Below, piece by piece: positions 1-27,481 of a DNA stretch of 64,000 nucleotides. Numbering within the stretch: position 1 is the stretch's first letter; each line of letters opens with the position of its first letter. This DNA is from a virus (taxonomy: Duplodnaviria > Caudoviricetes), in the IMG/VR virus record IMGVR_UViG_3300007511_001999, positions 1,464 through 65,463 of that record. One strand, 5' to 3'. The position numbers were made by a program, and so were the translations under genes. The notes beneath the pieces are model-generated. The model was given only the letters and a program-made list of their open reading frames with translations. It was not told where the DNA came from and ran no database searches.

Positions 1-91
1 AATCAATATGATCGCAGACGAGCATCTCGCCTCCATGATCTAATATTGTATAACCAGTGATACTGGTTGAAATATCCAGTCCTAAAATCAT
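1..91 (-). CDS. RuvC-like Holliday junction resolvase, N-terminal part (runs off window edge)
   Basis: Not in the ORF track. ATG at 91-89 overlaps the upstream TAA (TAATG). Translates MILGLDISTSITGYTILDHGGEMLVCDHID, the RNase H-fold/RuvC beta1 motif hLGhD-x-S-x3-G. Confidence 0.75.
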   Translation of the reverse strand, partial: MILGLDISTSITGYTILDHGGEMLVCDHID

Positions 92-1389
92 TAAATATCA
101 ATTTTGAGTTTGAACGTAAAGTCTCGCTCCGCGGTCTTTTTAACCGGTGTGGCAGGCTTAGCTATAGCAATCAAGTTTTCGTCCTTGTCAAAAATTCCAA
201 TCTTTGAAACATAGGTCGTTTTCACAAACGACCCAGTAGGATCATTATAGGACGAAGAGACAACATTTTTAATAACTCTTTTTTGATCTTGTAAATAACC
301 AGTGGATGCAGTCAAGACATGACTAGCAGTAGAAAACTGAAGATAGGTGGGATTATTCGAGTGATTTAGTTCTCCTTTGGGGAGAGTAGCAAACATTGTC
401 AGAGACTGAATTGGTTCGCTGCCGCTCATTTCTATTGTAAAGGTGCTTTTAGGAGGAGCAACGCCGGTCTCCTGGGCGCCGGCAGCAAAGTAAGTCCACG
501 CGGGGCTAATCGCTGAGCCGCCAGTGTATGTGTCTGTACAGGCATCACCGCCCGTGCCAGCATCCGGTGCGAGGTTATAGGCCCCTGTTAAAATTAACAT
601 CCCCTCGTTGTAGAGAGCAAGACCAATAACTGTGCCGGTCCGTGGGCCAGTCGTCTCATATAACAGGCCATTTTGCGCGGTGTCTTGTGCGCGCGCAATA
701 AGAGTGCCCGTAAAATAGAACTTAAGATCGACAGTTCCTTTTTTAATATTCTTTCCATAAAAGATACTAGGAACACTCACGAGGCCGAGGTTAATACTAT
801 CGAAGCTCCGCGCGGTGTTGGAATACGCAAACTCGGGGCTTATATAATTATAATAATTTATGACGTTCTTAAGCGCTCGGATGCGAGTGACCGACGCTGC
901 AGTGCTTACTGCGATGCCCGTACCGGAGGTCTTGTCAAATGTGGCGGGTGTGTAGCGCGCATCTGAGGATGCATAATAGGTCTTTTTAATCGACGCACTC
1001 AAGGGATACGAACCGTACATGATGTCGCCCGGGCTTGTACTATTAAAACTAGCCTTGGTGGTAGTACGGAAGGTCATACGAGAACCTTCCTTAGAAATCC
1101 ATGGTCGAATCAGCTTATTGTTTAAAACGCCGTTCGGGCCAAATGTGCGAGGGGTCGGGGCAGCATCGGGACCAGCAGAGCTGCTCTCATGACGATCGAC
1201 GTTCAATTCATAAAGACTTACTCCGCCCGAACTGAGAAGATTAAGCGAGCTTGTAAGTGACCCGGAAATACTGGGGGCGTCATTGTAGAATGCGCCGCCT
1301 TGAAATATCGTAAATTTTACTTCAGGATAAGTCTTGATCGTGTTGACGTAAACATCATTACTTTTGAACTTATGGAAGAATAGAGACAT
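91..1389 (-). CDS. Virion structural protein with a C-terminal tail-collar/gpH-like segment
   Basis: 432 aa. C-terminus KIGIFDKDENLIAIAKPATPVKK resembles the P2 gpH N-domain segment ELGLYDDAGTLIAVA. Paralog of 1398..2591 (shared IKKGxxxL, G-x-YxxG and NxSxNPTY motifs). Confidence 0.65.
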   Translation of the reverse strand: MSLFFHKFKSNDVYVNTIKTYPEVKFTIFQGGAFYNDAPSISGSLTSSLNLLSSGGVSLYELNVDRHESSSAGPDAAPTPRTFGPNGVLNNKLIRPWISKEGSRMTFRTTTKASFNSTSPGDIMYGSYPLSASIKKTYYASSDARYTPATFDKTSGTGIAVSTAASVTRIRALKNVINYYNYISPEFAYSNTARSFDSINLGLVSVPSIFYGKNIKKGTVDLKFYFTGTLIARAQDTAQNGLLYETTGPRTGTVIGLALYNEGMLILTGAYNLAPDAGTGGDACTDTYTGGSAISPAWTYFAAGAQETGVAPPKSTFTIEMSGSEPIQSLTMFATLPKGELNHSNNPTYLQFSTASHVLTASTGYLQDQKRVIKNVVSSSYNDPTGSFVKTTYVSKIGIFDKDENLIAIAKPATPVKKTAERDFTFKLKIDI

Positions 1390-1397
1390 TCCATGTC

Positions 1398-2591
1398 CTA
1401 ATAATCCAAGCGTACCCTAACCGTAAACTCATTTGATGGGTCCTTCTTCATTGGTTCTGAAAGCTTTGCGACAGCCAACAATTCGTTGTCGGGTGAATAC
1501 AATCCTACAGAGGTTGCATATGATACCGGAGTATCTTGAGAGTTGTTCTTCACAACCAGCTTACTTGCGCTCAAGTAGGTGGGGTTGGAAGAGTAGTTAA
1601 ACTCATTATGATTGGCCCGGCAGAAATAAATGGTAGAATTCAGCTCGGTTGTGTTGTTGAACTGAACATTATAAATACGGTGCCTTAACACATCACAGGT
1701 TCCAGAAATTGCCGAAGCACTAAGCGAACAAGTAATATCATTTGTTCCACTTACCATGGGAAGAGCTGGGCCGGCGCCATTGGGAGAGAGCATCGTGCCC
1801 ATGAGAGAACAGGACAGAAGGCCTGTACCAGTGCCGACGTAAGAGCCGCCTTTCACATTGGTCGGCGTGGCGCCGTTATATGATCCAGAAAAAATAGAAG
1901 CAGTAATAACTACAATTCCAGCCTGATAATAAATCAGGCCGGCCTTAATGTCAGTTGTGCTAGTGAGGACATCTGCTCCGCCGGTGATCAGCGCATCGTT
2001 CTTAAGATTTGCGCCGACAACATTGTTGGCATACAGAATTCCATATTCGCCGGCTGGAGAGTTTACCTTATACTGTGTGGCGCCTGACAAATCCTGTAAG
2101 ACCACACGCGCACCAAATGGGTTGGCTACCGAGGCAGTTGTCCCAAGTTCTAGACTAAAGCTTCCCTTTTTGATTTCATCCTTCTGAAGCAGTCTGGTGA
2201 AATTCAGGAAGAACGCTTCCCTAATCTTTGTGCCACCGGTAAGGTCGCCGTCTTCGTCAAACTGACGAACTGATCCTGTTTCATCGAAGCCAACAAGAAC
2301 CTGGGCAAGCTCGTTATAAATATTCTGCTTCTTGGCATTGTTGAGAAACCCAGAGCCAGAAAGCTGTGAGCCAGAAGCAAAGCCAAACGTTATATCAAAA
2401 ATATGATTTGCCGACGAACTTAAATAAGGGTAATCATAAACTGATTGGAAAATTCCATGGGAATAGTTCTTAATGTTGAGGTCATTATACGTGCCAGAGA
2501 CAATTGTTCCCGTCATAGGGATCGCTTCGTGGAGCATGGTCCTCGTTGAAACAACGTCTTTGGAGCGTAAAGTCTTAAATGTGGTAGCCAT
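1398..2591 (-). CDS. Virion structural protein, paralog of 91..1389
   Basis: 397 aa. Motifs EIKKGSF, GLIYYQAG, FNYSSNPTY, SVGLYSPDNELLAVAKLSEPMKK. SD-like AGAAGGA upstream. Confidence 0.65.
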   Translation of the reverse strand: MATTFKTLRSKDVVSTRTMLHEAIPMTGTIVSGTYNDLNIKNYSHGIFQSVYDYPYLSSSANHIFDITFGFASGSQLSGSGFLNNAKKQNIYNELAQVLVGFDETGSVRQFDEDGDLTGGTKIREAFFLNFTRLLQKDEIKKGSFSLELGTTASVANPFGARVVLQDLSGATQYKVNSPAGEYGILYANNVVGANLKNDALITGGADVLTSTTDIKAGLIYYQAGIVVITASIFSGSYNGATPTNVKGGSYVGTGTGLLSCSLMGTMLSPNGAGPALPMVSGTNDITCSLSASAISGTCDVLRHRIYNVQFNNTTELNSTIYFCRANHNEFNYSSNPTYLSASKLVVKNNSQDTPVSYATSVGLYSPDNELLAVAKLSEPMKKDPSNEFTVRVRLDY

Positions 2592-2603
2592 CTTTTATCC
2601 TTC

Positions 2604-3557
2604 TTAGGTCGATCTCACGAATCGAATGGGAATATCAATTCGATAACCAGTGTTAACACCTGTCACTCGAACGGTCGTATCAATGAAACGATAGTTACCA
2701 GATGAAAGGTTTGTACCAGCATCGTTGGACAAGGCCGACGTTGCAAGCGTACCCAGCTGTGTAAATAAATAGTCGCTGGTGCGAAGTTCGAGACTCGACA
2801 TGATTCTAAATCCGAGTTTCGTGCCGCGTGGGCCGGCAATAGAAGAGTCTTCTGTTCCTCCTAGGTTGGCCACAAAACCGTTAGTATTACGAAGTGTAAA
2901 GTAATAAGAAGCGATATTGTCGTCATCGATAAAGGAGGGGGTGGCAGCAGGGCTCTGAGTGTCTGTTTCGAGAACTGTGTTGGAGACACCGCTGGGGGGA
3001 GGGAATATGGAGCCGAAGCGATTATCAACCTCAACGATATACGCCACTTCCACAAGATCACGTGCTAGAGGCTCCTCATTGGAAAGCTCTGTCGTATCAA
3101 GCCCCTGGTGTACCTCGACGCGGGAAACATCGTCATTTGGCTTAAACCCGTTGAGAATACCAGTACCCGGCGTTACCAAGGTATCCACGGTGTTCTTATC
3201 AACGGCAACGTTAAAGGCACCATTTGCATTCTTCGCAGAGCCTTTCCCAGCTGTCGTATAAAGTTCAAGAACCGGTAGATATAAAATATCGTTGCGGTTA
3301 ATGGATATCAACTTCGACTTCATTGTCGACGTGTTGTTGGTAAATGCTTCTAAGACGGGAGTTTGAAGCAGTGTCAAATCATAATACGCGGAGCCGCTAG
3401 TGTTGTTTTTATCGTAGAGCCCGTAGTCCATCTCATCATCGCCTAAGGCGAACTTAGAAATTTTGAAACTGCCATCTCCCTTGGCTAGCCTCATCCTTCC
3501 GGTATCAGTTAAAACGGCATCAAGTATGATGTCGCCATCGTTTTGCAAGAATCCCAT
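2604..3557 (-). CDS. Virion structural protein with an N-terminal gpH-like segment
   Basis: 317 aa. N-terminus AVLTDTGRMRLAKGDGSFKISKFALGD resembles the start of tail-collar/gpH domains. SD GGAGAGG upstream. Confidence 0.6.
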   Translation of the reverse strand: MGFLQNDGDIILDAVLTDTGRMRLAKGDGSFKISKFALGDDEMDYGLYDKNNTSGSAYYDLTLLQTPVLEAFTNNTSTMKSKLISINRNDILYLPVLELYTTAGKGSAKNANGAFNVAVDKNTVDTLVTPGTGILNGFKPNDDVSRVEVHQGLDTTELSNEEPLARDLVEVAYIVEVDNRFGSIFPPPSGVSNTVLETDTQSPAATPSFIDDDNIASYYFTLRNTNGFVANLGGTEDSSIAGPRGTKLGFRIMSSLELRTSDYLFTQLGTLATSALSNDAGTNLSSGNYRFIDTTVRVTGVNTGYRIDIPIRFVRST

Positions 3558-3574
3558 ATCTTTTCCTCTCCTAT

Positions 3575-3582: not shown

Positions 3583-3601
3583 TACGAAATACTAATTGTT
3601 C

Positions 3602-14700: not shown

Positions 14701-17700
14701 AAGATTCTCTGCATAATCTTGATAGGGCCTATATGGGTCTAGGTCTTCTTGAAGGGGGGCAACCCAAGGATGAAATCCCATCAAAGTATAGTTAGCTGGG
14801 ACGAGTTGCGCGGTCGCCAGCGGGTAGGTTCCCTGAATTCGGGCCGGCGTTTCCGGGAGAGGTCGTATGTAACTAGCCGCTGGTCGGCAGGAGTTAGACA
14901 TAGCAGTGAAGATGGACCCCCCCGCCATAGCGCTAAAGAAATAGCTGTAGGTATTTTGAAGTTCGCCTCCGCCGGAACCAGTCCCTGCCAGAATCATGTT
15001 CTCAGTCAAAGAGCTGACATCTTTTCCGAGTTGGTTTTCTCCGGAAAAGAGAGCGAATGGTACCGATCCTGTGATAATGGCTGGAAGGGCTCCGGAAACC
15101 ACTTGTGCAATAGACGCCGTGTTTTGTCCGGGTTGACCGACGACTGGGCTGTACGTACCACTACCAAGGCCCGTCGAGGACGTTAGAAGGGTATATTTCT
15201 GTGGAGCGTCGAGAGGCCACGGGGAAGGATCCATGGCCATCACAGTAGTGGCCTTGGCACCCAAATAACTATTATAAACATACCCAAGAAGATTTTCGAA
15301 AGCGCTGAGTACCGTGCCCGTAGCGGGTGCGTTGGGCATCGAATAATCTATCATTCCCTGTGAATTGAGAAATTTTCCAGAACGAAGGACACGGCTTTTA
15401 TTCCAAACGTTTTCTGTGGAATAGTCGGCCCGGGTGCGTACGCGGGTCTGATATGCATTTACGGATCGAGGATAGACGCGTTCGCCATATGATGCATAAA
15501 CTGCTATATCTGCGTCGCCCGTTTTGTCAATATAGTCTTGTACTTCGTTAAACGCCTGATTGCTTCGAGTGTCAGGCCGGAGGCTCAGTCTGTTGTTGAG
15601 ACCATTATTAGAGAAGTAACCAATATTATTACCATAAGAGACCTGAAGCGATACATTGTTCCCTCGATCTGGGGATTCTGACCTGTCCTCGAATGCAGCA
15701 ACAAAAGGCCTATATCTAGTATCTATAGGCTGCTCAACATAATCTATAGATGTATTAGAAGACTTCGCGCGGAGGAAATTAATAGCATTTGTTCCGCCGG
15801 CCACAAATTGTGGCACCATAGGCGGGGGGTCCGCTATGGAAATTCGGTTAGCCCTTCGAAGTCTTCGAGCGACGGGATGTTCTTCTGTTCGCACCTGCTT
15901 CCAGGACGGATGCTGATAGGGTCCGTTAAGATTTAGCATGGCGTGATTGAAGGTGACAAAAGAGTCGCTTAATCTGGAGCCGGAAATGAAACGATATTCA
16001 TTCGAACCAGAACCGTACTTGGCGCCCCAAGCGCCGGTGACGGGATGGGCCCAAACTCCTAGATAGTCCGATACAATTTCGCCGGCCGGGTTAATCATAT
16101 CTGATCCTGTCAAGCCAGTATTTATGGCATGGGCGCCGCCTTTAACATCCTCAATAAACACATTTGTGGCCCGAGAGCCGGCATTGCCCATTCGATACCA
16201 ATTGGTCAGATTTGACTCAGCTGTGAAACCGCCTAGAAGGGTGCCCCGACGATTGTACAATTCTGTAACTTCTGTGGTGCTAAGAGCTTTGTTGTAAACC
16301 TGTAATTCGTTGACTAACCCATTGAATGGGTATCCAATGTGGTTGTTGCCCGCGTTACCTAACACTACAGGGCCTTGGCCTTGGGGAGCCGGAAATGTTA
16401 ATCCAGAATTGCCGCTGGAAGGGTTAAGGAGCGCTCCGGATGTAATCTGGCCGTTGTTGAGCATGGACACACCGTTAACATACATCTTTACAGCGCTATA
16501 ATCCCGATTAAAGCCGCCGGCTAGCATACAAGAGGGATCGGTGCCATCATAGCTAACTGCTAAGTGATACCAAGTATGAGGCAGGAAGGGGCCTCCGACG
16601 CCGGTTTTGAGATCCCAGCTAGAGGCGGTTATCCACATACTGGCCTTCGTAGCTGCGGCGCGGAGATCCGTGCCGGGAGCAGTTGTGCCGATGTTGCCGT
16701 TTCCGCCAGAAATAACCAACTCAGGTACCCAACTGGCGACCGAGGAAGAGCTGTTTGTACCCGGCTGAACGCGGGGCCAAAAGAGCAGCTGGGCCGGGGG
16801 GCTGAAGGAGAGACCAGTCGCGGACTCGGCTGGCCAGGACCATAAAGCCATGACCGGGGCTGATTCGCGAAGGGCGTCCAATGCTCCGCCGTGGGATTGA
16901 CTATTGCCAGGCCAGGTCTGGCCGGCCGAGGCCGTCGCATGGGAGCCGGTTTCGCCAGCGGCGTTCGCAAAGGAGCCACTATAAAGGATTTTAAACCAAG
17001 TGGATACGGTCCAAGCCGAGTTAGGGCCAACTGAGTTTCCGAGACCATTGGCGGAAGCGCTATAGGCAGTCGGAGCATTGTATTGCGCCCACTGCTTTTT
17101 TTCACCGCATACAAAGTTTGGACCCTGTCCGCGGAGTCCGCTGGGGTCCATTCCGAGGGTGGAGCCACTTATTCTCAGCGACTTTCTGTTTACTTGAAAC
17201 GCTGGGGGCTCTAAAGTATGGGTATCCAAGTTCGCATAGCGCATTGCTTGCGGACTATAAGCAAAGCCAGCAATATTGACACTTGCGCTATCGATTAGTG
17301 ATGAGTAAGGAGGCTCATAAAGCTGATTCATGGAAGTGGCAGTATCGGCTGCGGCGCCATAGGTGCCGGAGGGACGTCCCTGGAAGGGATATAGGCCGGG
17401 AACAATTGTGCCAGATGTAGATTGTAGGCCGGGTTCGACATATGCAGAAATTTCGGGAACTTTGGGTACAGTGTTTTTGTAAAAGCCATATAGAGGCAGT
17501 TCCGCCGATGGTGCCTCGCTTGAGTCTATCGGTGGTCCACTCCCCCAAATTCCGACCAGTTTTTGGCGACTAACTTCATCATAGAATGCCAGAGGGCCGT
17601 CTTCGGTCGAGATATCTTCCGGATCAGAACCGAGGGGCCACCATGCAACCAAGCGATCTGGTGCGTTGGAAGCCTTAAGGTTAAACCTAACTCCGTTATT

Positions 17701-20700
17701 ATAGATGGTGGAAGCTTCGCCGGCTGACAATGCTTTTGTCCAAACTGCAAGGTCGCACATATGGCCGCGATAATCCATAGTGTTGACCTCCGAGGCGCCG
17801 ACGCTCATGCCGTAAACACCGAAGCCGGCTGGGTCCGAGGTGGCTGCTCCGGCGCCGTTATCCAGAGCCCCGTTTATATAAATATTTGGAGGATTTCCCT
17901 CATATACTCCTTCATACGTGACCACCACATGGTACCAAGTATCTGCACTCAAACTCGTTGAACTTGCTCGATAATTACCCCCCATAACTGGGCCGTTATA
18001 TGCTCGAAGGGGAGCAGGGAGGCCCGCTCCGTATATTTCTAGATATCGCGCGAAACCGCCCCACGATACGAATTTAGGGATAGAATCAACCATAGTAGTA
18101 GGTCGTATCCACATTGAATAACTATAAGCCTTGGCTGCACCGACGGGACCACCAATCAGGGCGTTCCACTTATCACGTGCATATTCGTCGGCATCTTCGA
18201 GGCCGTAGTTGGCGCTGTTCCAGTTTGCAGATTTATTTCCAATATACCACGGTGTGTCTGTCTGTCCAGGTGCTGGGATCTTCTGATCAAACCCATAAAA
18301 CGGAACATCTGCTTCCAGAGATGCTGTAACCCACGCGTAGTTTCGATCAGCATTGGGAACACCATGTTGCTCAAAGAGGTTGTCATATAGAGAGCCGGTG
18401 ACGATGGGCCACGTCGACGGAGAAGCCGGAATCAAAGATTGATAGGTGCCGTAGCCATCAAAACCGTCGGCCGCTATGAGATCGCAACCGACGCCGGCAT
18501 TAAAGAACTTCGCCGCCTTCGGTGCCACGTTATATATGTTAAAGGAATCCCGATGATTTATCACGCCATCGTCTGGTTTTTTCCATATGCTGCTGTCGGA
18601 GAATCGCCACCAAACCGCAAGATTATCAATTTTCATTTTGCTCAAATCATACAGTTGGTGATGATTATAGATTCGTGATACTTCAGCGGCACTTAGCTCA
18701 ACATCCCATATTGCAAGATTGCTTAGGTTGCCCTGGAAGTAGCCGGACGAGGCGATCGGGTCTACACCGTTAGCAAAATATCCCAGCCATATATTGCCGG
18801 TGGTGCCGGTATATATGTCCGTGGGACCATTAAGTTGTTGTACAACAGTGGTATCTAGGGCTCCATCAAGATATATGTTCATATAGTCGTCGGTGCCAGA
18901 ACCCCCGGGATCTCCGCCGGCAAAAGTACAAACTACGTGATGCCACCTATCCTGAGTTATGGCTGAACTCTTCACGACGCCGTCCTGAGTGCCGTTTATA
19001 CCAAAGCGAATAGTATCATCGCTATTAAACAAGTATATGGCGCGCTTATTATTGCCACTACTGGTGCCGTCACCAATAATCGATTGGCCGTTGGCGACGG
19101 TGGTATCGGTGCACAGGATCCAAAAGGAAACACTAAAGGATTCAGCGTTCGAGCCGGCGCCGCCGATAAGATTGCTCCAAGCTGCACTGTTCCAGCCGCC
19201 TAGTTTGAGCTGATCGCTGTCGGCGTTGTTGAACCATAACGATCTAGTTTCCTGAGTAAATTTGAGCCTCTTTTTTGTATTCCTTTGTGTCTTGTGAAAA
19301 CTAGCAGAAGTAACAATGCCATCGCCAAGGATGCCATCGCTGTTGCCGGCCTGAGAAGCTGACAAAGATAACTCGCCAAATGCTGAGTCGGCGCCGAAGG
19401 GACCGCAATGAAGTGTCGAAAGCTGATTTAACCCACGTGGGTGGTCAATCTGATCCAAGGGAGCAACGATAGATGCTGAAGCTGGGGCGCTGGCGCTCGT
19501 GGGTATGCCATAGTCAATGACAGTCCGATTGCGATAAGGAAGAGCGTTATAAACCGAGAACTCTTCATGCGCAGGGTCCATATAACCCTGAGATGATACA
19601 TCATAGCCGCCCGGGGCACTGAATCGATTAACAATTACCGTTTGGTTTGAGTTGGAGCCTGTTCGAATTGGGAGTGCATAATCAAGGGTGCCACTTGGGT
19701 TTGTTGTTGGCCCCCAGCCGCCAACCATGGGACTATCTGTCGTTATCGCAGTTGACGCCAAGTTGGTCGCCGTACCGTCCCATGAAGAAGAGTTGGCGCT
19801 GTGAATTGTGCCGTTATATGTATCGACAGCATCCCCAAGGATTGCTTTTCCGTCGCCCAGAGGCCACCAAGAAACAAGGCCATCGCCTACCAGCTCTACT
19901 ATGTTAATACGGCGCCCTTCTCCATACAATGTGGTAACTTCTGCCGCACTTAGCGCTCGACCCCAGACGGCCGGGTCGCACATATAGTGCTCGCCATCGG
20001 CCGTGCCCAGACCGCCACCGTTTGCCGAAAGAGTAAAACCATGAGTGGAAAGAGCGGCGCCTGGGGTGGAATTCGCGGTCGAGGTTGACGCCAACGTCCC
20101 ATCCACATAAATTTGAGGCACCGCAAGGGCCCCGCCGGCGAATGTAACCACTACATGATGCCAAGTATTCAGAGCGACCACATTAGAGGTCGTCCGGGCG
20201 AAGTTGGCCGCGCCGGTAGTGCATTCCAGCTTCCCAGTGGTACCATAATATATAAGGCGCCGGAAGCCGGTACCGTAGACGCCGAAAGTCCAAATGTATT
20301 CACCATTCACAAAGGCAGTAGTTGGTTTAATCCACATTGAAACAGTAAAGGCTTTTTGGCTGGCAACGCCGCCGCCGACGATCGGTTCCCATGCGGCGAC
20401 GGTCCCAAACGTGGCATAGTCATCCGACCCATCGAAATATATACTCTTGGTAGGCGGATCCATAAGAACAGTGCGGCCGCGGGTGGCAGGAGTTTCCGGA
20501 TTGGGAGCAAACGTAAATGTCCCCTCACGGAAATAAGGATCGTTCTGCGACCTTCCCGCGGTTTGAATGACTTCGTAGTTCTTCGTGTAGTTACCAATTC
20601 GATTGTGATCGATTGTCCCGGACATAGACTGGCTCAAAGACGCCGTGGTCATGAGAATGTTCTTGATGTTTATGGGGCGCTTGGCATGTTCTCCTCGCGG

Positions 20701-23700
20701 CAGGTTTGCTTTGGGTCTGTCATAAAGGTTTGTAGTGCCGCCAGCTGTGTCCAACTCAGGATACTGCGGCGAGACCACCTGTAGATGGCCCGAGGATGCC
20801 TTCCAGGGGCTTCCGGTGTTGGAGCCCGTGAACTCGTAGCCCATTTGCACTCGGAAGCCTTCAGGGCGATTCACGCGGCTGTCAAGGCCATTGAAGTTGT
20901 TGGCCATGGTGAGCGGATCGGAAATACTGTCGGGGGATCCAGATTGGTTCAGTTCAATATGACGGTGCTGTCGGCCTCCAACAAACTTCTCAGTAAAGGG
21001 CCCCTGCATTGGAACATCTGTCTGATCTGAGGCAAGGTCAGCATGCATGTTAGTGATGATTGTACTGCCAGTAAAGTTCGACATCTCGCTTGATAGAGCA
21101 TCACTAATAGATGAGCTGTACAGACTAAAGGGTGCAACCGTGGCGCCGTCGGCGTCTCTCTCATACACTTCATAACTTGCTGACTGGACTCCCATTCCAA
21201 ATCCATAACGAACTTTCTGAGATGGGAAGTACTCATCTGATGAGCTTATCAGACTCTCTACGTCTGCAGACTTGGCGACCATGATATCGCTTGGTACCGC
21301 GCCATAGGTTCCCTGACCCACTGTGGGGCCCGCTGGCGCCGTCGCCTCATACACGACACCCTTGCGCTGGCTTGGGTGTCTAGCAACGCCTCCTAGAACC
21401 ACAGAGCCTCCTCCGCTGAATCGGTAGGGGCGCCCTAGGGTTCGGTTGTTGGAAGACTTGATGGCGTTAAGGAGGACCTCTCTGTCGGCATCAACATTGT
21501 CAGGAGTAGCAAAGGCTGGCAGATCTCTCCCAGCCCGGTTCTGCCACCAAACTGATTTACTGTTCTGGGCGGGGCCATTATAGTTGGCAATAAAGTCAGG
21601 TGAGTCAGCCTCAATATCTGACGCCGAATCAAAGTTCGTAGGAGTCCCGTCGCGACCGCCGACTTCATCGGCTAAAGCGCCGGCGCCGGTATAAGTGTCG
21701 TCCAAACCATTGCCCAGTTTCCACCACGATAAGAGATTTGATTGGCAAGTACTTGTGCTTAATTTAACTCGATCGCCGCCGCCATAAATTTCGGTTACTT
21801 CGGCAGAAGAAAGCTCTTTGTCCCACACAGCGAAGTCGCAGTAATTACCTGCGGCCTCCTGCGAGCCGGTGCGAACTCCTATGGTAGAAACGGCACTGTT
21901 GATGGCTTCGGGGGCGGATGCGGGGGTGGCATATGCTGGGTTAGTGTTGTTAACTCCATTAATATAAACTTTAATAACTCCATATTCTGTCTCGCCTGTG
22001 TCGACATCGCCATCAAATGTTACAGTAATGTGAGTCCAAACACCGACAGCAACGACAGCAGATGAGCGGACAGAACTTACGTTATTAGACGAATTTGAGG
22101 CCAATATCGATCCATCACTGGTAGTATAGAGGAAGACGCTCCTCTTCCCCGTACCGAAAGAATACAAATATGGGTTTGCTGGAGTCGACAAAGAGCCTCC
22201 GCGCTTATACCAAAAAGAAACACTATATGGTTTTGCAGCATCTCCGGCACCTCCTATGAGAGGCTCCCAGACGCTAGCGCCATTCCCAATATCCACATAT
22301 TCATCGGTGCCGTCGAAAAGCAAAGAAAGGGGAGTGGGGGTTGTAGATCCCAAGGGGGCATGGTCATATTTCCAACTATTAAGCACCGAAGTATTTGGCA
22401 TGCCAGTAACTCGTTTTGTAGGCGCCTGTGCTGATTCAATGCCAGTGCCCTGAGCGTCATTGATAATAGAGTTAACAGTAATTGGCGTGGCGACAGTTCC
22501 AATTGATCCTGTTATATCTGGATCGGACTGGGCCAAGAACGGGAACTTGTTCTGATATTTACTCCTCTCTAAAATGTGACTTTCAATCAAAGTTCGAATG
22601 TTGGGATCAAAATCCAACGAAATAGGAGCCAACTGTCCGAGGAGAACGCTGAGGGCTCCATCGATCCATTTATAATACTCAAAGAACTTTTCAAAGTCTA
22701 TCTCGCTATTGGAGACGCCTTCAAAGAAGCGTTGACGCAAGAGCTTAAGTCCCTTGTACTCGCCTCTATAACGATTAACCGGGGCGCCTATAATGGTGTT
22801 TAAGTCTGTAAGAGTTGCAAAGTAATTGATCATCTGATCAGAAATTGACTGTTGCATACTCTTCTCAAACGCCAAGAAATAGTTAAGTGGCCGTGAGTCA
22901 CGCGTGAACTCAACCTGATCCTGTTGCGACAGGACTGTGATCATGTCCGATGACTCTAGAGATTCGGGCAGATTCTGCTTGGATGCCACCACATATTCCT
23001 TGTCAACAACAGTGCTGGTACTAGCGGAAAAGTTCGAACCAGAACCTGGGTGCTGATAATAAAGTATGTTTCCAAGCCAATCGTTCCTAGTTGATGCCAT
23101 AGTTGCAGAACCAGAAGACAAATCAGCGACGCGGAAGCTGCCGGCAGCAGAGGATCCGGTATTCTGGTTGAAGTCCCAGTTCAACATTAATGTGTTGATA
23201 CGTGGAAGGTCACCGTAGCTAGCGGTGGCTTGGAATGGGAACGCATAGAGCCCTGTGTCAGCGAGACCATAATTGGTGGGGTCGAGGGCGTGAGCTTTGA
23301 TTGTCTCCTGGCTGAGCTTGTCGAGCCACAATCGGCACGAGCCAATCTTAGCATCACAGCGCTGAAGGACAGTCCCTGTCATGTTCGTGCGGTGGGCGCC
23401 AACGAATGCTCGACGAGAACCAGTTATAAAGGCTGCTCCAGGGGCGGTTGCCGTGCCTGTCACATTGAAGCTATTAACAACCACACCAGCGTCAACATTG
23501 ACTCCTTGGAATTCAATATCATAGTCAGCTATGGGCGCGGTAGGCACATATGCTGTCCAAGGATAACGAGAGGGGCTAATCTTAACAGCAAAGTTCCACT
23601 GGTTATTATCATAAACATCATAATACATCGAACTCGTAAGAGTTGGTACCTTGCCGCCGGCGCTACTCTTCAGGATAAAGGTGACATTAGGAGAGTCCTT

Positions 23701-25920
23701 TGTTTCCCTAACAGCATAAACCTGGAAGTTTGTTGCATCATCTGTGGGAAATGCTGTATCTGTCTGAGCGTTTTCTGAGCCGGCGGTGTCTGACGACTGT
23801 GCTGTCGTGGCGTGTACACCAAAGAGAGAGCACGAAATGATATTTGTGTCCTGGTAGAAGTCGTGACTTTGATCAAACTTCTCAGGAAATAGAACGTCTG
23901 CCTCCATGGTAAAGGCAAACCCGCCAGTTAAATTGGTGCTCGAAGAAATAAAACCATAAGTGTTTGTGGCATCGCCCGGGTCGCGGAACTGGAAAACGTT
24001 AGCATCCATGCTACGAATGGAATTAAAGTTGACATACTTTTTACCATATGACTGGTTTTTTCGGTTTGTCGTAAAATCAAACTCTGCATTATTAGCATAC
24101 ATGTTGATCTTGATTAGCTCATCATCAATGCCGAAACATCGAATCAAATTCCTAAATGATTTTTCAGTTCCCTTTGTCTTATAGATGTAGGATAAATTGT
24201 TGTAAATGTTCTGATAAATCTGATTCTTAATCTCTGTAATATTCTTTTCAAATACACGATCTTCGCTGCGGTCACCGAGTTTTTCGAGTACTGTCGCGTC
24301 AACAAACAGTTCCGGAGACACAAGACCCGTAGACATAAGAAGTCGTTCTGAAAAAACACTAACCTTGTCTGAGCCACTTACATAGTTGATATCCTTGAGT
24401 TTATTTAGTGACTCGATCTGTAGATGAAGAGTATCCAGATAGCTCGCCATGATCTGAGTTACGTTATGAAGTTGAGATCCACGCTCGACATCCTCTTCTG
24501 TTATCCAGGCAGGGATGGATTTATAGATAGAGGCAGCATTTGAGGCATCATGGTCAGAACCAGACTGAATAAGGCCTGCTCGAAGAGCAACCACCGCGGG
24601 ATCAAAGGAATAAATAATCGGATCTTCAAATTCTTTAATCGCAGCGCTTGAAGAAATGATGGCCGAGCCAGTGTTACGTGAGTCGCTAGTATACCCAGTC
24701 CAGGCTCCGTTTGATACACGGCCAGAATAATCCAAAACATTGTTGTCAATCGAACTCGTGCCAGTAATGCCCTCGTTAAATTTATAATAAACGCCTAAAG
24801 TAGTGTTTGCTACCTCTGTAGTGTCTTTAAATGTCTGTGGATCAGAGTTAACACCACCGCCAACTTGTGTAAACCAGAAGCGGCCAACATCTTGGCTACT
24901 TCGCTGAGTTTTCCAGTATCGGAACTCATCTAAAGACGCAGAGAGCTTGCCTGCGTATTGGGCGCCTCCGCCAAGAGTGGTTGCTAGGGCACCTAGTGTG
25001 GCCTGCATCGCACCAGTTACTTCATTAAGGGCGTCGCTGCCAAGAGTAGACTCCTGATTGAGAGCCCCATCAATATAGACTCTGCTAGTAATGCCAGCTG
25101 TGGCATTTTTAAAGGAGAACGCATAGTGGTGCCATGTTGAGTCCGCTATGGTGACCGCACTACCGATTGAACTCTCACTTACTCCGTCAGATCCCGAAAG
25201 CAGGGTCGCAGTGAAGACTGCGGCGCCTTCGTTTGAGGAATTTAGCGCCAAAGACAGTCGTCCATAGTGGGCCAATCCCTCAGTGGCGCCATTCCACATG
25301 TCGAAGATCACCTCTTTGGTGGTCAATGAAGACGCATATGCATCCTTCTTCATCCAGAATTCTACAGTAACCCCATCACCAGACAGATCATATTTAAGAT
25401 TCGATGTTCTGTTGGAGCCGGTATCATAAAAGTTAGACCCAGTAAACTGAAGGTTGAGTGGCGACATACCATCCGGATTTGGATGCGGGCCGCCCTTAAA
25501 ATAAATGTATTCTAAAGTATTGGGGAGACCATAACCATTACCAAGCGAGCCGTTTCTGGTTCCCCATCCGCCGGCAGACATCAGGCCATAGCCGGTGCGG
25601 CGCGGGTAAAGGTTATTTAGAATATAGAGATCTATCTCTGTGGATTCATTTTCCCATTTAAGTCGTTCGCGAAGGGAGCCATCATATGGATAGGTCTTGT
25701 AAATCCGATCTAGGGATTCACCATAATATTTCTCAGCTGAGCCATAGCGAGCAAAATTAGAGGCAGTTGTATAATCGACCGCAGGAATAAACCTGCGCTC
25801 TTTTATAATATCTTGTTTTTGATATTCGGCAGACTCAATTGCAGATCCAACCTCATCTGCTGATTGGTTGGAAAGTGACTTGAGTGTTTGCGCTTTTTCA
25901 AAAAGATGTTTAAAGCTCAT
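11722..25920 (-). CDS. Giant baseplate wedge/adhesin protein (gpI/gp7-like scaffold with multiple LamG/ConA-like domains)
   Basis: 4732 aa. YIYKTKGTEKSFRNLIRCFG is a gpI/gp7-type KGT motif. At least 6 LamG-like units (S-x-W...WHHxxxT...YxDG...xxW). Lies downstream of gp25 and gp6 homologs. Confidence 0.75.
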   Translation of the reverse strand: MSFKHLFEKAQTLKSLSNQSADEVGSAIESAEYQKQDIIKERRFIPAVDYTTASNFARYGSAEKYYGESLDRIYKTYPYDGSLRERLKWENESTEIDLYILNNLYPRRTGYGLMSAGGWGTRNGSLGNGYGLPNTLEYIYFKGGPHPNPDGMSPLNLQFTGSNFYDTGSNRTSNLKYDLSGDGVTVEFWMKKDAYASSLTTKEVIFDMWNGATEGLAHYGRLSLALNSSNEGAAVFTATLLSGSDGVSESSIGSAVTIADSTWHHYAFSFKNATAGITSRVYIDGALNQESTLGSDALNEVTGAMQATLGALATTLGGGAQYAGKLSASLDEFRYWKTQRSSQDVGRFWFTQVGGGVNSDPQTFKDTTEVANTTLGVYYKFNEGITGTSSIDNNVLDYSGRVSNGAWTGYTSDSRNTGSAIISSSAAIKEFEDPIIYSFDPAVVALRAGLIQSGSDHDASNAASIYKSIPAWITEEDVERGSQLHNVTQIMASYLDTLHLQIESLNKLKDINYVSGSDKVSVFSERLLMSTGLVSPELFVDATVLEKLGDRSEDRVFEKNITEIKNQIYQNIYNNLSYIYKTKGTEKSFRNLIRCFGIDDELIKINMYANNAEFDFTTNRKNQSYGKKYVNFNSIRSMDANVFQFRDPGDATNTYGFISSSTNLTGGFAFTMEADVLFPEKFDQSHDFYQDTNIISCSLFGVHATTAQSSDTAGSENAQTDTAFPTDDATNFQVYAVRETKDSPNVTFILKSSAGGKVPTLTSSMYYDVYDNNQWNFAVKISPSRYPWTAYVPTAPIADYDIEFQGVNVDAGVVVNSFNVTGTATAPGAAFITGSRRAFVGAHRTNMTGTVLQRCDAKIGSCRLWLDKLSQETIKAHALDPTNYGLADTGLYAFPFQATASYGDLPRINTLMLNWDFNQNTGSSAAGSFRVADLSSGSATMASTRNDWLGNILYYQHPGSGSNFSASTSTVVDKEYVVASKQNLPESLESSDMITVLSQQDQVEFTRDSRPLNYFLAFEKSMQQSISDQMINYFATLTDLNTIIGAPVNRYRGEYKGLKLLRQRFFEGVSNSEIDFEKFFEYYKWIDGALSVLLGQLAPISLDFDPNIRTLIESHILERSKYQNKFPFLAQSDPDITGSIGTVATPITVNSIINDAQGTGIESAQAPTKRVTGMPNTSVLNSWKYDHAPLGSTTPTPLSLLFDGTDEYVDIGNGASVWEPLIGGAGDAAKPYSVSFWYKRGGSLSTPANPYLYSFGTGKRSVFLYTTSDGSILASNSSNNVSSVRSSAVVAVGVWTHITVTFDGDVDTGETEYGVIKVYINGVNNTNPAYATPASAPEAINSAVSTIGVRTGSQEAAGNYCDFAVWDKELSSAEVTEIYGGGDRVKLSTSTCQSNLLSWWKLGNGLDDTYTGAGALADEVGGRDGTPTNFDSASDIEADSPDFIANYNGPAQNSKSVWWQNRAGRDLPAFATPDNVDADREVLLNAIKSSNNRTLGRPYRFSGGGSVVLGGVARHPSQRKGVVYEATAPAGPTVGQGTYGAVPSDIMVAKSADVESLISSSDEYFPSQKVRYGFGMGVQSASYEVYERDADGATVAPFSLYSSSISDALSSEMSNFTGSTIITNMHADLASDQTDVPMQGPFTEKFVGGRQHRHIELNQSGSPDSISDPLTMANNFNGLDSRVNRPEGFRVQMGYEFTGSNTGSPWKASSGHLQVVSPQYPELDTAGGTTNLYDRPKANLPRGEHAKRPINIKNILMTTASLSQSMSGTIDHNRIGNYTKNYEVIQTAGRSQNDPYFREGTFTFAPNPETPATRGRTVLMDPPTKSIYFDGSDDYATFGTVAAWEPIVGGGVASQKAFTVSMWIKPTTAFVNGEYIWTFGVYGTGFRRLIYYGTTGKLECTTGAANFARTTSNVVALNTWHHVVVTFAGGALAVPQIYVDGTLASTSTANSTPGAALSTHGFTLSANGGGLGTADGEHYMCDPAVWGRALSAAEVTTLYGEGRRINIVELVGDGLVSWWPLGDGKAILGDAVDTYNGTIHSANSSSWDGTATNLASTAITTDSPMVGGWGPTTNPSGTLDYALPIRTGSNSNQTVIVNRFSAPGGYDVSSQGYMDPAHEEFSVYNALPYRNRTVIDYGIPTSASAPASASIVAPLDQIDHPRGLNQLSTLHCGPFGADSAFGELSLSASQAGNSDGILGDGIVTSASFHKTQRNTKKRLKFTQETRSLWFNNADSDQLKLGGWNSAAWSNLIGGAGSNAESFSVSFWILCTDTTVANGQSIIGDGTSSGNNKRAIYLFNSDDTIRFGINGTQDGVVKSSAITQDRWHHVVCTFAGGDPGGSGTDDYMNIYLDGALDTTVVQQLNGPTDIYTGTTGNIWLGYFANGVDPIASSGYFQGNLSNLAIWDVELSAAEVSRIYNHHQLYDLSKMKIDNLAVWWRFSDSSIWKKPDDGVINHRDSFNIYNVAPKAAKFFNAGVGCDLIAADGFDGYGTYQSLIPASPSTWPIVTGSLYDNLFEQHGVPNADRNYAWVTASLEADVPFYGFDQKIPAPGQTDTPWYIGNKSANWNSANYGLEDADEYARDKWNALIGGPVGAAKAYSYSMWIRPTTMVDSIPKFVSWGGFARYLEIYGAGLPAPLRAYNGPVMGGNYRASSTSLSADTWYHVVVTYEGVYEGNPPNIYINGALDNGAGAATSDPAGFGVYGMSVGASEVNTMDYRGHMCDLAVWTKALSAGEASTIYNNGVRFNLKASNAPDRLVAWWPLGSDPEDISTEDGPLAFYDEVSRQKLVGIWGSGPPIDSSEAPSAELPLYGFYKNTVPKVPEISAYVEPGLQSTSGTIVPGLYPFQGRPSGTYGAAADTATSMNQLYEPPYSSLIDSASVNIAGFAYSPQAMRYANLDTHTLEPPAFQVNRKSLRISGSTLGMDPSGLRGQGPNFVCGEKKQWAQYNAPTAYSASANGLGNSVGPNSAWTVSTWFKILYSGSFANAAGETGSHATASAGQTWPGNSQSHGGALDALRESAPVMALWSWPAESATGLSFSPPAQLLFWPRVQPGTNSSSSVASWVPELVISGGNGNIGTTAPGTDLRAAATKASMWITASSWDLKTGVGGPFLPHTWYHLAVSYDGTDPSCMLAGGFNRDYSAVKMYVNGVSMLNNGQITSGALLNPSSGNSGLTFPAPQGQGPVVLGNAGNNHIGYPFNGLVNELQVYNKALSTTEVTELYNRRGTLLGGFTAESNLTNWYRMGNAGSRATNVFIEDVKGGAHAINTGLTGSDMINPAGEIVSDYLGVWAHPVTGAWGAKYGSGSNEYRFISGSRLSDSFVTFNHAMLNLNGPYQHPSWKQVRTEEHPVARRLRRANRISIADPPPMVPQFVAGGTNAINFLRAKSSNTSIDYVEQPIDTRYRPFVAAFEDRSESPDRGNNVSLQVSYGNNIGYFSNNGLNNRLSLRPDTRSNQAFNEVQDYIDKTGDADIAVYASYGERVYPRSVNAYQTRVRTRADYSTENVWNKSRVLRSGKFLNSQGMIDYSMPNAPATGTVLSAFENLLGYVYNSYLGAKATTVMAMDPSPWPLDAPQKYTLLTSSTGLGSGTYSPVVGQPGQNTASIAQVVSGALPAIITGSVPFALFSGENQLGKDVSSLTENMILAGTGSGGGELQNTYSYFFSAMAGGSIFTAMSNSCRPAASYIRPLPETPARIQGTYPLATAQLVPANYTLMGFHPWVAPLQEDLDPYRPYQDYAENLRLAGKDCSIVPEYRISEHLETYLGNEFTEPATDGFLAKLGNLLDLTGSSLDSSTKDFYSVYATTDFLELFRVVDNDLRGPRGKSEDDNIVRHGTTLQATAFTSFLPYKGFYPAERTVKLSSYFSQSMGSLLPGTRSSPDFADARGGTVAPAATPNETLSRILLEPLFSPGILFNTIKSGIAVGNYVIRNTASNPGDLKQAQYCDSYEFAALGALGIAAKRPGSETFGAASVSASAWASAGETPNQQHWGILEGYSEFNFNSSASYQSSSVNSASFACLNVGHSASAGIKAFMPVRYRAQARDDYNTLWTSATGSRFGYYLQKIPFDAIRRPQDYLSARALASGSDVAEAPDWLGGVLANTASSTAAEPEGGLGAGWLYDTGVSMSSSIAASVRVPQSLFGFSSPSGGYDASGSLYDTMMVGTLKNQSQNKIRWNGNVINPIYNLAIDNFLCETVNFFQDGLTSFVSKEEEAFKPVKKNKYYGMRVLLERSADDVGNPTFGMYSRASAFGTPLALSGSRGSGITFSHLTPPYYNGAAYADIVFQAPYSDRPALQDIVSKANVVYSRRIESNLQLSPSGTQASASCIGFVTGSDLKRDHDYVQMQLSASVNIFDKILAIPEGTNQQKVQWVIQTKFETPMFDFYDTPCLPHPTSSAHRRATAGPIDVTSSTAPFQIRGMWHQYGRVPEANKGVFLGVQDLPETYYSDQLGQEIQVESLRDIVGFGSGESKRVGELSTSKTVREAVLVVPFRIARGEREFIKLPPTSIFERSSALAERARSRERMQRVDFWEEHLGRYNRQVELLERYILPPTLDFLINRSVRPIFFDAFEFTETFSSKDLQNMWQNLPPESNQKMRRQSSTINISDFFTDQIFGRTDIQWLVFKVKQRATKDYDILSKRGLTKDIPLVPSSIESPYSFNWPYDYFSLVELLKIDENVEYVSRGAGATPWEDPPPPPRLGASPGSDTTGQSRFVGDYTEAEATAVLNDLNNNQES
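16060..22330 (-). repeat. Five dispersed paralogous LamG-like cassettes (~250-370 aa each) inside the giant ORF
   Basis: Units at ~21595-22330, ~19725-20445, ~18410-19243, ~17500-18245 and ~16060-17185. Shared W-x2-(L/I)(I/V)GG...(Y/F)(S/T)xSxW, LSxxEVxx(I/L)Y and LxxWWx(L/F) motifs. The fifth is more divergent. Confidence 0.75.
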
Positions 25921-25927
25921 ATCCTAA

Positions 25928-27481
25928 TTATTCGTCAACCCTAAATTTAAACGTTTCGGGTTGCTCGACCCATGTTGCTATACTACCATTATAATAAGAG
26001 AATTTAATCCCATACATGTATCCGGCCTCCAGTTCCAGCATATCTAAATCAAAATAGTTGCCGCTTACGTCGTAGGACAAGTATGTTGAATACTCACTTC
26101 CAGTACCATATGGAAGCACCTCATAATTGTCAATCATTCGCAAAATACGATAAGACGCACTTTCAATAATTTCCGTAGGATTAACGTTAGTGGCCACCGT
26201 ATAAATGGTGGGACTCCAATTCTTATCTCGTACAAATGTTCGGAAGCGCACCTTTTGGTTCCTTCGGTATGAAGGCTGAAGATTTTTGATAGAAGTAACT
26301 CTTTCAAATGTTGGGGCGCCCTCAAAGTTGCGGTAAGTTTTAGTAGTGAAGGAGCCGGTTTTATACTGAACAGAACCTGTCGGTAGCGACGACCATACAT
26401 CAAACATTTTAGAGGGCGCACCATTAGCCGATGAAGAGGTCATACAGATAGATGCCGTGTATATTCCTGTACTAACGAGGCCGCCTGTAACACAAACAGC
26501 GTTGCCGGCGCCGGCGCCAGAGAGGGCTTGAATCCCAGATGGTTTTGTGTTCCCGGCGTTTCCTGAGAAAAGAGAAACATATAGAAGGTTGCTGGTAAGG
26601 TTTGGAATATTTGTAAGTTGACCGCGAACATAGTTATACAAGTACAGAGTATTGAGGTTATCCGTGGCTGGGGCCGCAGAGCTACTGTAGTAAAATGAGC
26701 CCCTCTCATCAGTGACGCGGGAATCCCAACGTGCTTCGATCCATGGACGTTTATAAAAGTACTCACTTGAACGCGCGAAGAACTTCTTGGTATAGTATGA
26801 GGTCTCTGCTCCGCCGGTATTTTGTAAAACACCATTAGCATAGGCTGCGGCTGTATACGCCTCCTGGCTTGAAGTTAAGAAAATGCCTAGGCCATAGTTG
26901 GGAATATGTTTCGAGGTTCCGGATGTTTGCATCCATCTCTCAATAGTTGGGGTAATATTGATTTCTAGATCTTCATAGCCTTGCTCGAATGTCTGACGGT
27001 ATACGGGTGAGTCGGACGACTCGTTATCGTCCCGATAGTCCCCACCGTTGTTGGCCCAAGCCACAGTAGTAGATGCTGACATCCAGTTAGATTTTCCTGC
27101 GTCTGAATATTCATCCATGTCGAGGCCGGTGCCTTCGGCCCATGAGCGCGAAACGGCGGCTACAACCAAGGTAAAGTCCTGCGGGAGGGTCCAAGGATGC
27201 TTGGCGTTGCTCATCTTAAGGAAAAAGTTAACACTTCCGGAGGCCGGGATTCTCCCAGCGGTTCGGTCGGCCGCAACAGTGGTAATGGGGAACTGAATGA
27301 GCGCTCTCGATAGCTCTTGGGTCTGCCCGGTGGTCGAGGCAGAACTCTGACCATAGATTGAAAAGATTTCTACCGAGTCAGCATAGCCCATGTTAGAGCC
27401 AGTACCTCTATTACTTAGGTTCGCCTTGAAAGCATTTGTAATGGTAGTGTCAGCGCTAGCCGTATATCTCTTAAAGCCCAT
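25928..27481 (-). CDS. Structural protein with a DNRLRE/disaggregatase-related-like domain
   Basis: 517 aa. Pattern ADTTI...SRALIQF...VSRSWAEG...WxxxGGD...INITxxIExW...NYGL...FxxRS...RPWIE. Sits between gp6-like and gpI-like genes. Confidence 0.55.
   Translation of the reverse strand: MGFKRYTASADTTITNAFKANLSNRGTGSNMGYADSVEIFSIYGQSSASTTGQTQELSRALIQFPITTVAADRTAGRIPASGSVNFFLKMSNAKHPWTLPQDFTLVVAAVSRSWAEGTGLDMDEYSDAGKSNWMSASTTVAWANNGGDYRDDNESSDSPVYRQTFEQGYEDLEINITPTIERWMQTSGTSKHIPNYGLGIFLTSSQEAYTAAAYANGVLQNTGGAETSYYTKKFFARSSEYFYKRPWIEARWDSRVTDERGSFYYSSSAAPATDNLNTLYLYNYVRGQLTNIPNLTSNLLYVSLFSGNAGNTKPSGIQALSGAGAGNAVCVTGGLVSTGIYTASICMTSSSANGAPSKMFDVWSSLPTGSVQYKTGSFTTKTYRNFEGAPTFERVTSIKNLQPSYRRNQKVRFRTFVRDKNWSPTIYTVATNVNPTEIIESASYRILRMIDNYEVLPYGTGSEYSTYLSYDVSGNYFDLDMLELEAGYMYGIKFSYYNGSIATWVEQPETFKFRVDE

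Follow-up and report, generated by a model that had tools for sequence, protein, structure and literature searches.

The 64,000-nucleotide stretch analysed here (hereafter the window; IMG/VR record IMGVR_UViG_3300007511_001999) covers 64 kb of a viral contig fragment that measures 65.5 kb and has a CheckV completeness of 43%, and belongs to a T4-like myovirus. Four of its structural proteins, of 397, 432, 517 and 4732 amino acids (aa), carried a strong excess of a short directional motif, hydrophobic-[ST]-[GA]-Ser-hydrophobic (alternative residues in brackets). As read from the sequences, this motif may serve as an O-glycosylation acceptor tag for the outer surface of the virion, which would bear a phage-made glycan coat; we put the probability of this reading at about 0.55. 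A preliminary description of the window had already suggested a sequon-like signal for O-glycosylation. A specific, directional and outward-restricted signal co-occurring with phage glycosyltransferases (GTs) was indeed found, but neither the symmetric triad nor the partnership with five GTs that it had described was retained.

Motif excess in four structural proteins

Every long open reading frame (ORF) of the window, including all window features given below, lay on the minus strand. The four carriers were the 397-aa protein of the baseplate region (1398..2591), which was the densest, its 432-aa paralogue (91..1389), a giant fibre or baseplate protein of 4732 aa (11722..25920) with Laminin_G_3 (concanavalin-like) domains (PF13385, six stretches, E = 3e-81), and a 517-aa protein (25928..27481) encoded directly downstream of a gp6-like wedge gene. 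The triad [ST][GASC][ST] had been counted by hand in the preliminary description, and these counts proved exact, with 17, 12, 102 and 15 occurrences, respectively. Comparison with shuffled sequences, put forward there as a check, showed that the triads were enriched over means of 4.1, 5.7, 43.6 and 6.6 (z = 6.8, 2.8, 9.6 and 3.5; 1000 shuffles per protein, 44 ORFs; hereafter, "n vs m" gives an observed count and its shuffle expectation). The remaining 40 of the 44 ORFs were at triad expectation, with a largest z of 2.1. The triad was sparse in the enzymes and in the 2065-aa protein (4 vs 6.6), as had also been stated, and the nine neighbouring structural proteins showed no motif enrichment (18 vs 17.2).

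The four carriers were the most Ser- and Thr-rich proteins of the window (17.8-22.0%), as would be expected if the excess were an artefact of chance or of the composition of Ser/Thr/Gly/Ala-rich fibre proteins. Such an artefact was contradicted by shuffling within 10-residue blocks, which left 17 vs 4.9, 12 vs 6.6, 102 vs 51.7 and 15 vs 7.4 triads in the 397-, 432-, 4732- and 517-aa proteins, by block shuffles of 60, 30 and 15 residues, in which the excess was also kept, and by a first-order Markov expectation (146 vs 89.7 in the four proteins). Pairs of Ser or Thr at other spacings were at expectation, both adjacent ([ST][ST], 208 vs 208.9) and with two residues between them ([ST]..[ST], 210 vs 208.5). 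In an unbiased ranking by observed over expected counts of all tripeptides seen at least 8 times, TGS was first (25 vs 4.7), SAS second (22 vs 5.9), TAS third (15 vs 4.5) and SGS eighth (19 vs 6.1).

The Ser and Thr codons within triads were diverse, so that the signal lies at the protein level and a cause at the DNA level was ruled out. Internal repeats were also rejected as the source of the excess in the 4732-aa protein, as BLASTP found none; its triads occurred in 23 of 24 bins of 200 residues and exceeded local expectation in 19 of them.

Shape and direction of the motif

The excess of the [ST]-small-[ST] triad was thus real, but its symmetric shape was not. In the four proteins pooled, [ST][GA]S was found 81 times vs 20.7 (z = 13.9), and [ST][GA]T 28 times vs 16.3. 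The small middle residue had been described correctly as regards Gly and Ala, both strongly enriched; Ser was weakly enriched (34 vs 22.1), Cys was too rare to judge, and Thr, Asn/Asp, Pro, hydrophobic or charged residues were at or below expectation. By protein, [ST][GA]S counts were 8 vs 1.37 (397 aa), 6 vs 1.71 (432 aa; p = 0.0065), 57 vs 16.0 (4732 aa; z = 10.5) and 10 vs 2.07 (517 aa; z = 5.7). No such excess was present in the inner baseplate and hub proteins assigned by PHROG and Pfam and encoded at 27481..38284, namely the 596-aa gp6-like protein (3 vs 0.99), the 127-aa gp25 (0 vs 0.07), the 2065-aa protein (1 vs 2.39), a 333-aa protein (0 vs 0.55) and the 452-aa lysozyme-hub protein (0 vs 0.79). 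The pattern [GA][ST][GA] was mildly enriched in the four carriers (57 vs 35.2). Neither D-[ST]-[AILVMT], which is the general O-glycosylation sequon of Bacteroidota (21 vs 21.9), nor the N-glycosylation sequon N-x-[ST] (58 vs 65.6) was enriched in them.

Relatives of the window phage comprised 43 IMG/VR contigs, some of 184-210 kb, and three isolates, Flavobacterium phage immuto, Microcystis phage Mel-JY01 and Rhodothermus phage RM378; a similarity search of the baseplate-region DNA against a phage collection gave no match. A lineage set of five genomes (G002, complete, 194 kb; G022; Mel-JY01; immuto; RM378) was compared with five control phages (T4, S-PM2, P-SSM2, SPO1 and HTVC008M). Among Ser/Thr-rich ORFs, taken as those of at least 200 aa with at least 16% Ser plus Thr, [ST][GA]S stood at 3.21, 3.47, 3.88, 2.79 and 2.94 times expectation in the lineage genomes and at 0.73, 1.46, 1.31, 1.04 and 1.73 times expectation in the controls; [ST][GA]T was alike in the two groups.

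The 88 Ser/Thr-rich ORFs of the lineage allowed each position to be resolved. Before [GA]-S, only Ser (284 vs 89) and Thr (240 vs 74) were enriched, 3.2 times each; after [ST]-[GA], only Ser was (524 vs 164; 3.2 times), with Thr at 1.5 times, and all other residues in either position ranged from 0.3 to 1.5 times expectation. Ile, Leu, Val and Phe were favoured both at position -1 (1.7-1.8 times) and at position +3 (Phe 2.0 times), and Asp, Glu and Pro were depleted. The motif is also directional, because T[GA]S outnumbered its mirror S[GA]T by 40:15 in the four window proteins (p = 0.001) and by 240:119 in the lineage (p = 1.6e-10), vs 146:179 in the five controls. This mirror comparison needs no composition model, and the equally Ser/Thr-rich proteins of T4 contained only 12 [ST][GA]S vs 16. 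Together with the block shuffles, the Markov expectation and the spacing results, these comparisons leave a compositional or chance origin a negligible probability.

Conservation and distribution across the lineage

All 41 IMG/VR homologues of the 397-aa protein were triad-enriched (z = 2.1-5.4), even at about 30% identity. In an alignment of 34 homologues, triads were in excess both in columns with less than 50% identity (87 vs 41) and in conserved columns (119 vs 46). At fixed sites the flanks stayed Ser or Thr and the middle residue swapped among Gly, Ala and Ser, as in one set of columns with T20/S11, A16/S9/G8 and S31; the sites at residues 27, 32, 58 and 230 were conserved in position in 29-32 of the 34 homologues. 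Judged from these alignments, the motif is under selection and not merely inherited, and is conserved under turnover of its sites. The 397-aa family profile also matched the 432-aa protein (E = 1.8e-14), and homologues of the 517-aa protein in G002 and G022 were likewise enriched (z = 3.5 and 6.3). In Mel-JY01, five paralogues of the 397/432-aa family (357, 352, 954, 718 and 591 aa) stood in tandem at 172489-181435, and four of the five were motif-enriched.

Genome scans were run on ORFs of at least 90 aa, counting as enriched those with z of at least 2.5 and at least 4 sites. The lineage genomes contained 11 of 172 (G002), 13 of 193 (G022), 16 of 207 (Mel-JY01), 13 of 169 (immuto) and 7 of 128 (RM378) enriched ORFs, the rest of each genome lying within about 25% of motif expectation. 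The controls contained 0 of 191 (T4), 1 of 140 (SPO1), 4 of 148 (S-PM2), 2 of 226 (P-SSM2) and 4 of 159 (HTVC008M). In G002, the carriers were the homologues of the four window proteins, the tail sheath, the gp23-like capsid protein, a 1425-aa protein ([ST][GA]S 37 vs 12.0) and some small proteins; non-carriers included the tail tube, hub, tape measure, gp6, gp25, terminase and enzymes. Near the capsid gene of G002 (45196-51784), a 707-aa protein and the 1425-aa protein gave matches to the Pfam family 'Chlorovirus glycoprotein repeat' that were below threshold (22.8 and 18.6 bits; cut-off 27).

Within the G002 sheath, 14 of 15 triads fell in residues 140-618, outside the conserved C-terminal domains (687-976), and in its 622-residue capsid protein all nine fell in residues 151-351, an insertion between the matches to the gp23 core. 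The tail tube had 0-1 motif site in each of the five lineage genomes. By analogy with T4 gp18 and gp23/gp24, on which we take the outward orientation of the carrier parts to rest, the motif appears confined to outward-facing parts of the particle, namely outer domains of the sheath, the capsid insertion, and baseplate and fibre proteins. The same folds differed between the two sets, since sheath homologues of four lineage genomes had observed/expected [ST][GA]S counts of 14/3.0, 8/2.3, 7/1.9 and 8/2.6 vs 1/1.4 in T4, 2/2.1 in S-PM2, 5/2.4 in P-SSM2 and 2/1.7 in HTVC008M, and homologous capsid proteins also differed in motif excess.

The sheath, the capsid protein, the giant protein, the 517-aa protein and the 397/432-aa family showed no mutual homology by BLASTP and profiles. 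A single hidden domain common to the carriers was rejected in the same way, all-against-all BLASTP and the 397/432-aa family profiles showing only the 397/432-aa paralogy and a short similarity between a 616-aa and the 1425-aa protein. Within one clade the motif is thus common to folds that are unrelated, and the counterparts of these folds in other clades are without it; the pattern is best explained by an external agent that recognises a short peptide with a direction.

The main rival to an O-glycosylation tag is a structural micro-motif, in which packing or hydration would lead the outer domains of this clade to prefer hydrophobic-[ST]-small-Ser-hydrophobic in loops and where strands end, and the GTs would have another purpose, such as host envelope glycans or superinfection exclusion. 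Such a role agrees with the hydrophobic flanks and the depletion of Asp, Glu and Pro, with the position-conserved sites of the 397-aa family, with the mild enrichment of [GA][ST][GA] and with a weak excess in the marine control phages (1.3-1.7 times). It also agrees with the AlphaFold2 (AF2) models of the two small carriers, in which most triads were in coil or at strand ends. These models were of low confidence and were read only as secondary structure and predicted local distance difference test (pLDDT) scores; 11 of 17 triads of the 397-aa protein (pLDDT 66.7) were wholly coil and 3 began at the last residue of a strand, and 8 of 12 triads of the 432-aa protein (pLDDT 65.9) lay in segments with pLDDT below 50, which made up about a third of the chain.

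Packing or hydration nevertheless leaves much unexplained, as homologous folds of T4 and cyanophages lacked the excess, the carriers had no detectable mutual homology, and variable alignment columns were still in excess. A middle Ala was nearly as common as Gly, and the swapping of Gly, Ala and Ser within a column speaks against a turn with positive phi. Position 3 preferred Ser over Thr, the better strand-former, the mirror motif was not enriched, and neither Asn/Asp at position 3 nor strand-formers at position 1, which a hairpin would predict, were enriched. We regard this explanation as less probable than an O-glycosylation tag.

A conserved pair of GT4 genes

Two adjacent genes of the window encoded GT4 glycosyltransferases, a 416-aa protein (GT4 A; 58351..59601), the first gene of the pair, and a 427-aa protein (GT4 B; 57068..58351), the second, with Pfam Glycos_transf_1 scores of 35.9 and 29.6 bits (cut-off 26.4). 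An E-x7-E motif in the C-terminal domain is a signature of GT4-type families. It was invariant in GT4 A (E284...E292; 16 sequences) and in GT4 B (E289...E297; 18 sequences), and the two motifs aligned with each other.

Homologues of GT4 A and GT4 B stood side by side in every lineage genome and were absent from the five controls, and of the sugar island in which they lie only these two genes had homologues in all five lineage genomes. A lineage profile (BLASTP, E 1e-3, ORFs of at least 90 aa, with which small or fast-evolving partners could be missed) singled out the G002 ORFs that recurred in each of the other four lineage genomes but in no control; its sole enzymes were the two GT4s, the others being the tail tube and the 397/432-aa family. 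Of the 22 loci searched, 20 had the two genes next to each other. The 397-aa family and GT4 occurred in one and the same set of 7 phage records, and the only record classed as at least 90% complete that was without transferases in searches for GT2 and GT4 was a 46-kb fragment. More than 7,500 GT4 homologues were found among metagenome proteins, many of them from ocean surveys.

The preliminary description had named five neighbouring glycosyltransferases as partners of the motif. Four of them were supported by Pfam, and the fifth, a 277-aa ORF at 56232-57065, was only a lead from a protein atlas. As partners, the two conserved GT4 genes (57068-59601) held, but the rest of the island, which varied between relatives, did not. 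An O-glycosylation tag is favoured because the only clade-specific enzymes were two glycosyltransferases. Any tag read by an enzyme or a partner protein would show equal specificity, direction and surface restriction, and the Ser could instead receive another modification (phosphorylation, acylation or attachment of a phospho-form) from a host or phage enzyme, or the motif could dock a decoration or chaperone protein on outer surfaces. To this we give a slim chance, as the profile yielded no lineage-specific enzyme other than the GT4s and none of the 44 window ORFs matched a kinase or acyltransferase family in Pfam.

Complex prediction for GT4 A with GT4 B gave an interaction prediction score from aligned errors (ipSAE) of 0.85 vs 0.00 for the best control. 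Of 157 solved complexes, 116 attained this ipSAE mark, as did 2 of 215 mismatched pairs; these counts hold only roughly here, as our own alignments were used. The runs shared at least 96% of contacts, with a partner pLDDT of at least 88, and the pair is thus predicted to form a heterodimer. The closest match in the PDB was, for both, the chlorovirus NY-2A protein B736L (3OY2), and was weak (E = 6.8e-8 for GT4 A and 0.049 for GT4 B).

Longer frames with GT4 homologues were also observed. In two distant relatives (G042:C1:22874-25486 and G043:C1:9597-13149), one frame of 1104-1114 aa combined a GT2 domain with a homologue of GT4 B (427 aa), which looks like a fused multi-transferase, and G021 and G006 possessed longer frames of 643 and 694-698 aa. 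The 484-kb uncultured phage LR756508.1 contained a stretch that matched the C-terminal end of the 397-aa family (115350-115595) and a GT4 homologue (305435-306706), so the pairing of that family with GT4 may extend to a much larger phage.

Proposed mechanism and points against it

In the mechanism that we propose, the heterodimer of GT4 A and GT4 B would add the first sugar or sugars to a hydroxyl of the tag in the host cytoplasm late in infection. The acceptor would most likely be the near-invariant Ser in third position, and the tagged sites would lie in the loops of outward-facing domains and where their strands end. The variable transferases (GT2, GT10-like and possibly the 277-aa ORF) could then lengthen the chain with rare sugars supplied by the neighbouring variable island, and the outcome would be a glycan coat over the fibres, the baseplate rim, the exterior of the sheath and the insertion domains of the capsid. 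We infer the acceptor residue, the sugars and the choice of proteins as the target alike. For the broader proposition, that an abundant aquatic T4-like clade coats its whole particle exterior with self-made, fast-changing glycans, which a conserved heterodimeric GT4 would place at a directional tripeptide sequon, we would give even odds.

Several points weigh against O-glycosylation. The link between the motif and the GT4 pair sets one clade against outgroups and so amounts to one evolutionary event, and since a GT4 gene was retained in all 8 related records of at least 150 kb, there was no relative without the pair for comparison. RM378 possessed the GT4 pair, yet its 397-aa homologue, sheath and capsid protein were not enriched. 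Proteins that would not be targets were not depleted of the motif (27 window enzymes, 4 vs 5.8; 'other' ORFs of G002, 55 vs 45), and because the marine controls were themselves mildly enriched, the signal may in part be a general trait of Ser/Thr-rich fibre proteins. The hydrophobic residues at -1 and +3 would also suit a packing element, and the low AF2 confidence of the two small carriers counts here as well. The literature searched gave no glycan, mass shift or lectin result for any member of the clade.

The GT4 pair could, moreover, act instead on host envelope glycans or on DNA. Glycosylation of phage DNA needs a hydroxymethyl-pyrimidine route, through the ThyA family or a TET/JBP dioxygenase; the pyrimidine hydroxymethylase family PF00303 was found in one of the five lineage genomes, and TET/JBP (PF12851) matched none of the five in a search run without a positive control.

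RM378 also differed in another respect, as it showed a directional motif excess overall in ORFs unlike those that bear the motif in the marine members. The literature searched described neither this motif nor glycosylated virions for the clade, and queries for Mel-JY01, immuto or RM378 together with glycosyltransferase returned unrelated matches only.

Genomic context of the window

In reading direction, the window began with a gene for a PIN-PhoH fusion protein (61250-62566; Pfam), the sugar and glycosyltransferase island of about 20 kb (40029-59601) and a late-sigma-like gene, followed by the lysozyme-bearing hub protein, the 2065-aa protein, gp25 and the gp6-like wedge protein. It ended with nine proteins to which no family was assigned, including the 517-, 4732-, 397- and 432-aa carriers. 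The 397-aa protein matched no Pfam or PHROG family, and Foldseek against the PDB gave nothing at E of 0.001 or below; in a wide VIA-align search its best match was a phi812 baseplate chain (Z = 4.9, 78 residues, root-mean-square deviation 3.2), with no lead over the next matches. Its position in the baseplate is presumed from gene order only. ORFs of 1005 and 923 aa overlapped by 53 nucleotides (7647-7699), and the start of the downstream gene may be mis-set or the two genes may be coupled.

Besides the GT4 pair, the sugar island possessed a GT2 gene (55498-56235; PF00535, E = 3e-28) with homologues only in G002 and G022. The adjoining 277-aa ORF, a candidate short GT, had homologues in the same two genomes only and no Pfam, NCBIfam or PDB match; its atlas features resembled viral clusters, one of which had Glycos_transf_1 in 65% of its members (score 0.95; a lead only). 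The variable nucleotide-sugar part (40029..55498) encoded an HldE-like kinase and adenylyltransferase, short-chain dehydrogenase/reductase (SDR) dehydratases and epimerases, two DegT/RfbH proteins, an RmlC-like protein, thiamine diphosphate (ThDP) enzymes, PanB and a GT10-like protein (48159-49067). Most of its genes had no homologue in Mel-JY01, immuto or RM378.

The gene for PanB, a ketopantoate hydroxymethyltransferase above the NCBIfam cut-off (52776-53711), adjoined one for an acetolactate-synthase-like ThDP enzyme (53711-55498); as an unusual partner of sugar genes, PanB may supply an acyl or branched substituent. At 46113-47284 and 50607-51956, a split E1 alpha/beta-like (transketolase-type) pair and an RfbH-type dehydrase above cut-off (470.9 vs 423 bits) were found, which suggests 3,6-dideoxy or branched-chain sugar chemistry. 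Two separate cytidylyl/adenylyl-transferase-like genes, resembling HldE domain II, stood one at each end of the island (40029-40634 and 62598-63119). Autotransporter heptosyltransferases such as TibC and Aah are of the GT9 type; general Pfam scans of the 44 window ORFs, which included no search aimed at that family, showed no heptosyltransferase beside the HldE-like kinase/adenylyltransferase pair.

Comparison with known systems

GtfA and GtfB form the two-protein O-linked N-acetylglucosamine (O-GlcNAc) transferase of the serine-rich-repeat adhesins of Gram-positive bacteria, in which GtfB is non-catalytic and binds the substrate. The phage pair resembles it in consisting of two adjacent GT-B-fold proteins, here predicted to form a complex, and would likewise act in the cytoplasm on acceptors of the Ser-small-Ser type. 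It differs in that both phage subunits retain an invariant E-x7-E and that the candidate acceptors are scattered single tripeptides in folded virion proteins rather than long Ser-rich repeats. GtfA was absent from the PDB sequence matches (8 at E of 0.01 or below for one GT4, and 3 at E of 1 or below for the other).

Chlorovirus capsid glycans are N-linked at atypical sites, and the host is eukaryotic. Like the window phage, these viruses encode a GT4-like enzyme, B736L being, weakly, the closest solved relative of both phage GT4s, and in both cases the virus would make its own glycan without the host secretory machinery; the N-linkage and the eukaryotic host set them apart. Marine T4-like cyanophages such as P-SSM2 carry clusters of sugar or lipopolysaccharide ('LPS') genes. 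P-SSM2 is likewise a large marine myovirus with nucleotide-sugar and transferase islands of unproven target, but it was without the GT4 pair, with a motif ratio of 1.31 and T[GA]S:S[GA]T of 56:62; it possessed other GT1 and GT2 genes and yet showed no motif excess.

In mycobacteriophages, virion proteins are O-glycosylated by phage-encoded GTs, with glycans at the C-termini of capsid and tail-tube subunits (Freeman et al. 2023, as cited in PMC12619734). By that account, the two systems are alike in that the phage encodes its own soluble GTs and modifies its own virion proteins in the host cytoplasm, which for the window phage is a proposal; they differ in that the candidate sites here are internal, with a defined tripeptide that recurs tens to hundreds of times in a protein set, and in that the tail tube is spared. 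O-glycosylation of flagellin by Maf-type transferases is, according to the review PMC12645811, stepwise and lipid-independent and recognises no sequon, and hydrophobicity patterns may guide the choice of sites. The flagellin system and the phage would have in common that the subunits of a self-assembling structure on the surface are glycosylated in the cytoplasm, in many cases with rare sugars that a variable island supplies; the sharp tripeptide and the GT4 transferases are distinct, and no Maf family was matched in the Pfam results of the window.

In the literature reached, mycobacteriophages are the only phages whose particles are documented to be glycosylated, with the glycans at the C-termini of subunits (PMC12619734), and stepwise O-glycosylation systems of bacteria are described as having no sequon (PMC12645811). 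If the O-glycosylation reading is true, no O-glycosylation sequon would have been defined before this one, either for a cytoplasmic, lipid-independent system or for a bacterial virus, and glycosites on phage particles would become predictable from sequence. The cultured members immuto, Mel-JY01 and RM378 make the idea directly testable, and a short portable tag with a two-protein transferase could serve glyco-engineering. The large and puzzling sugar islands of marine phages would gain a target, and the particles of an abundant clade would carry variable glycan coats, with consequences for adsorption, evasion of defences, grazing and particle stickiness.

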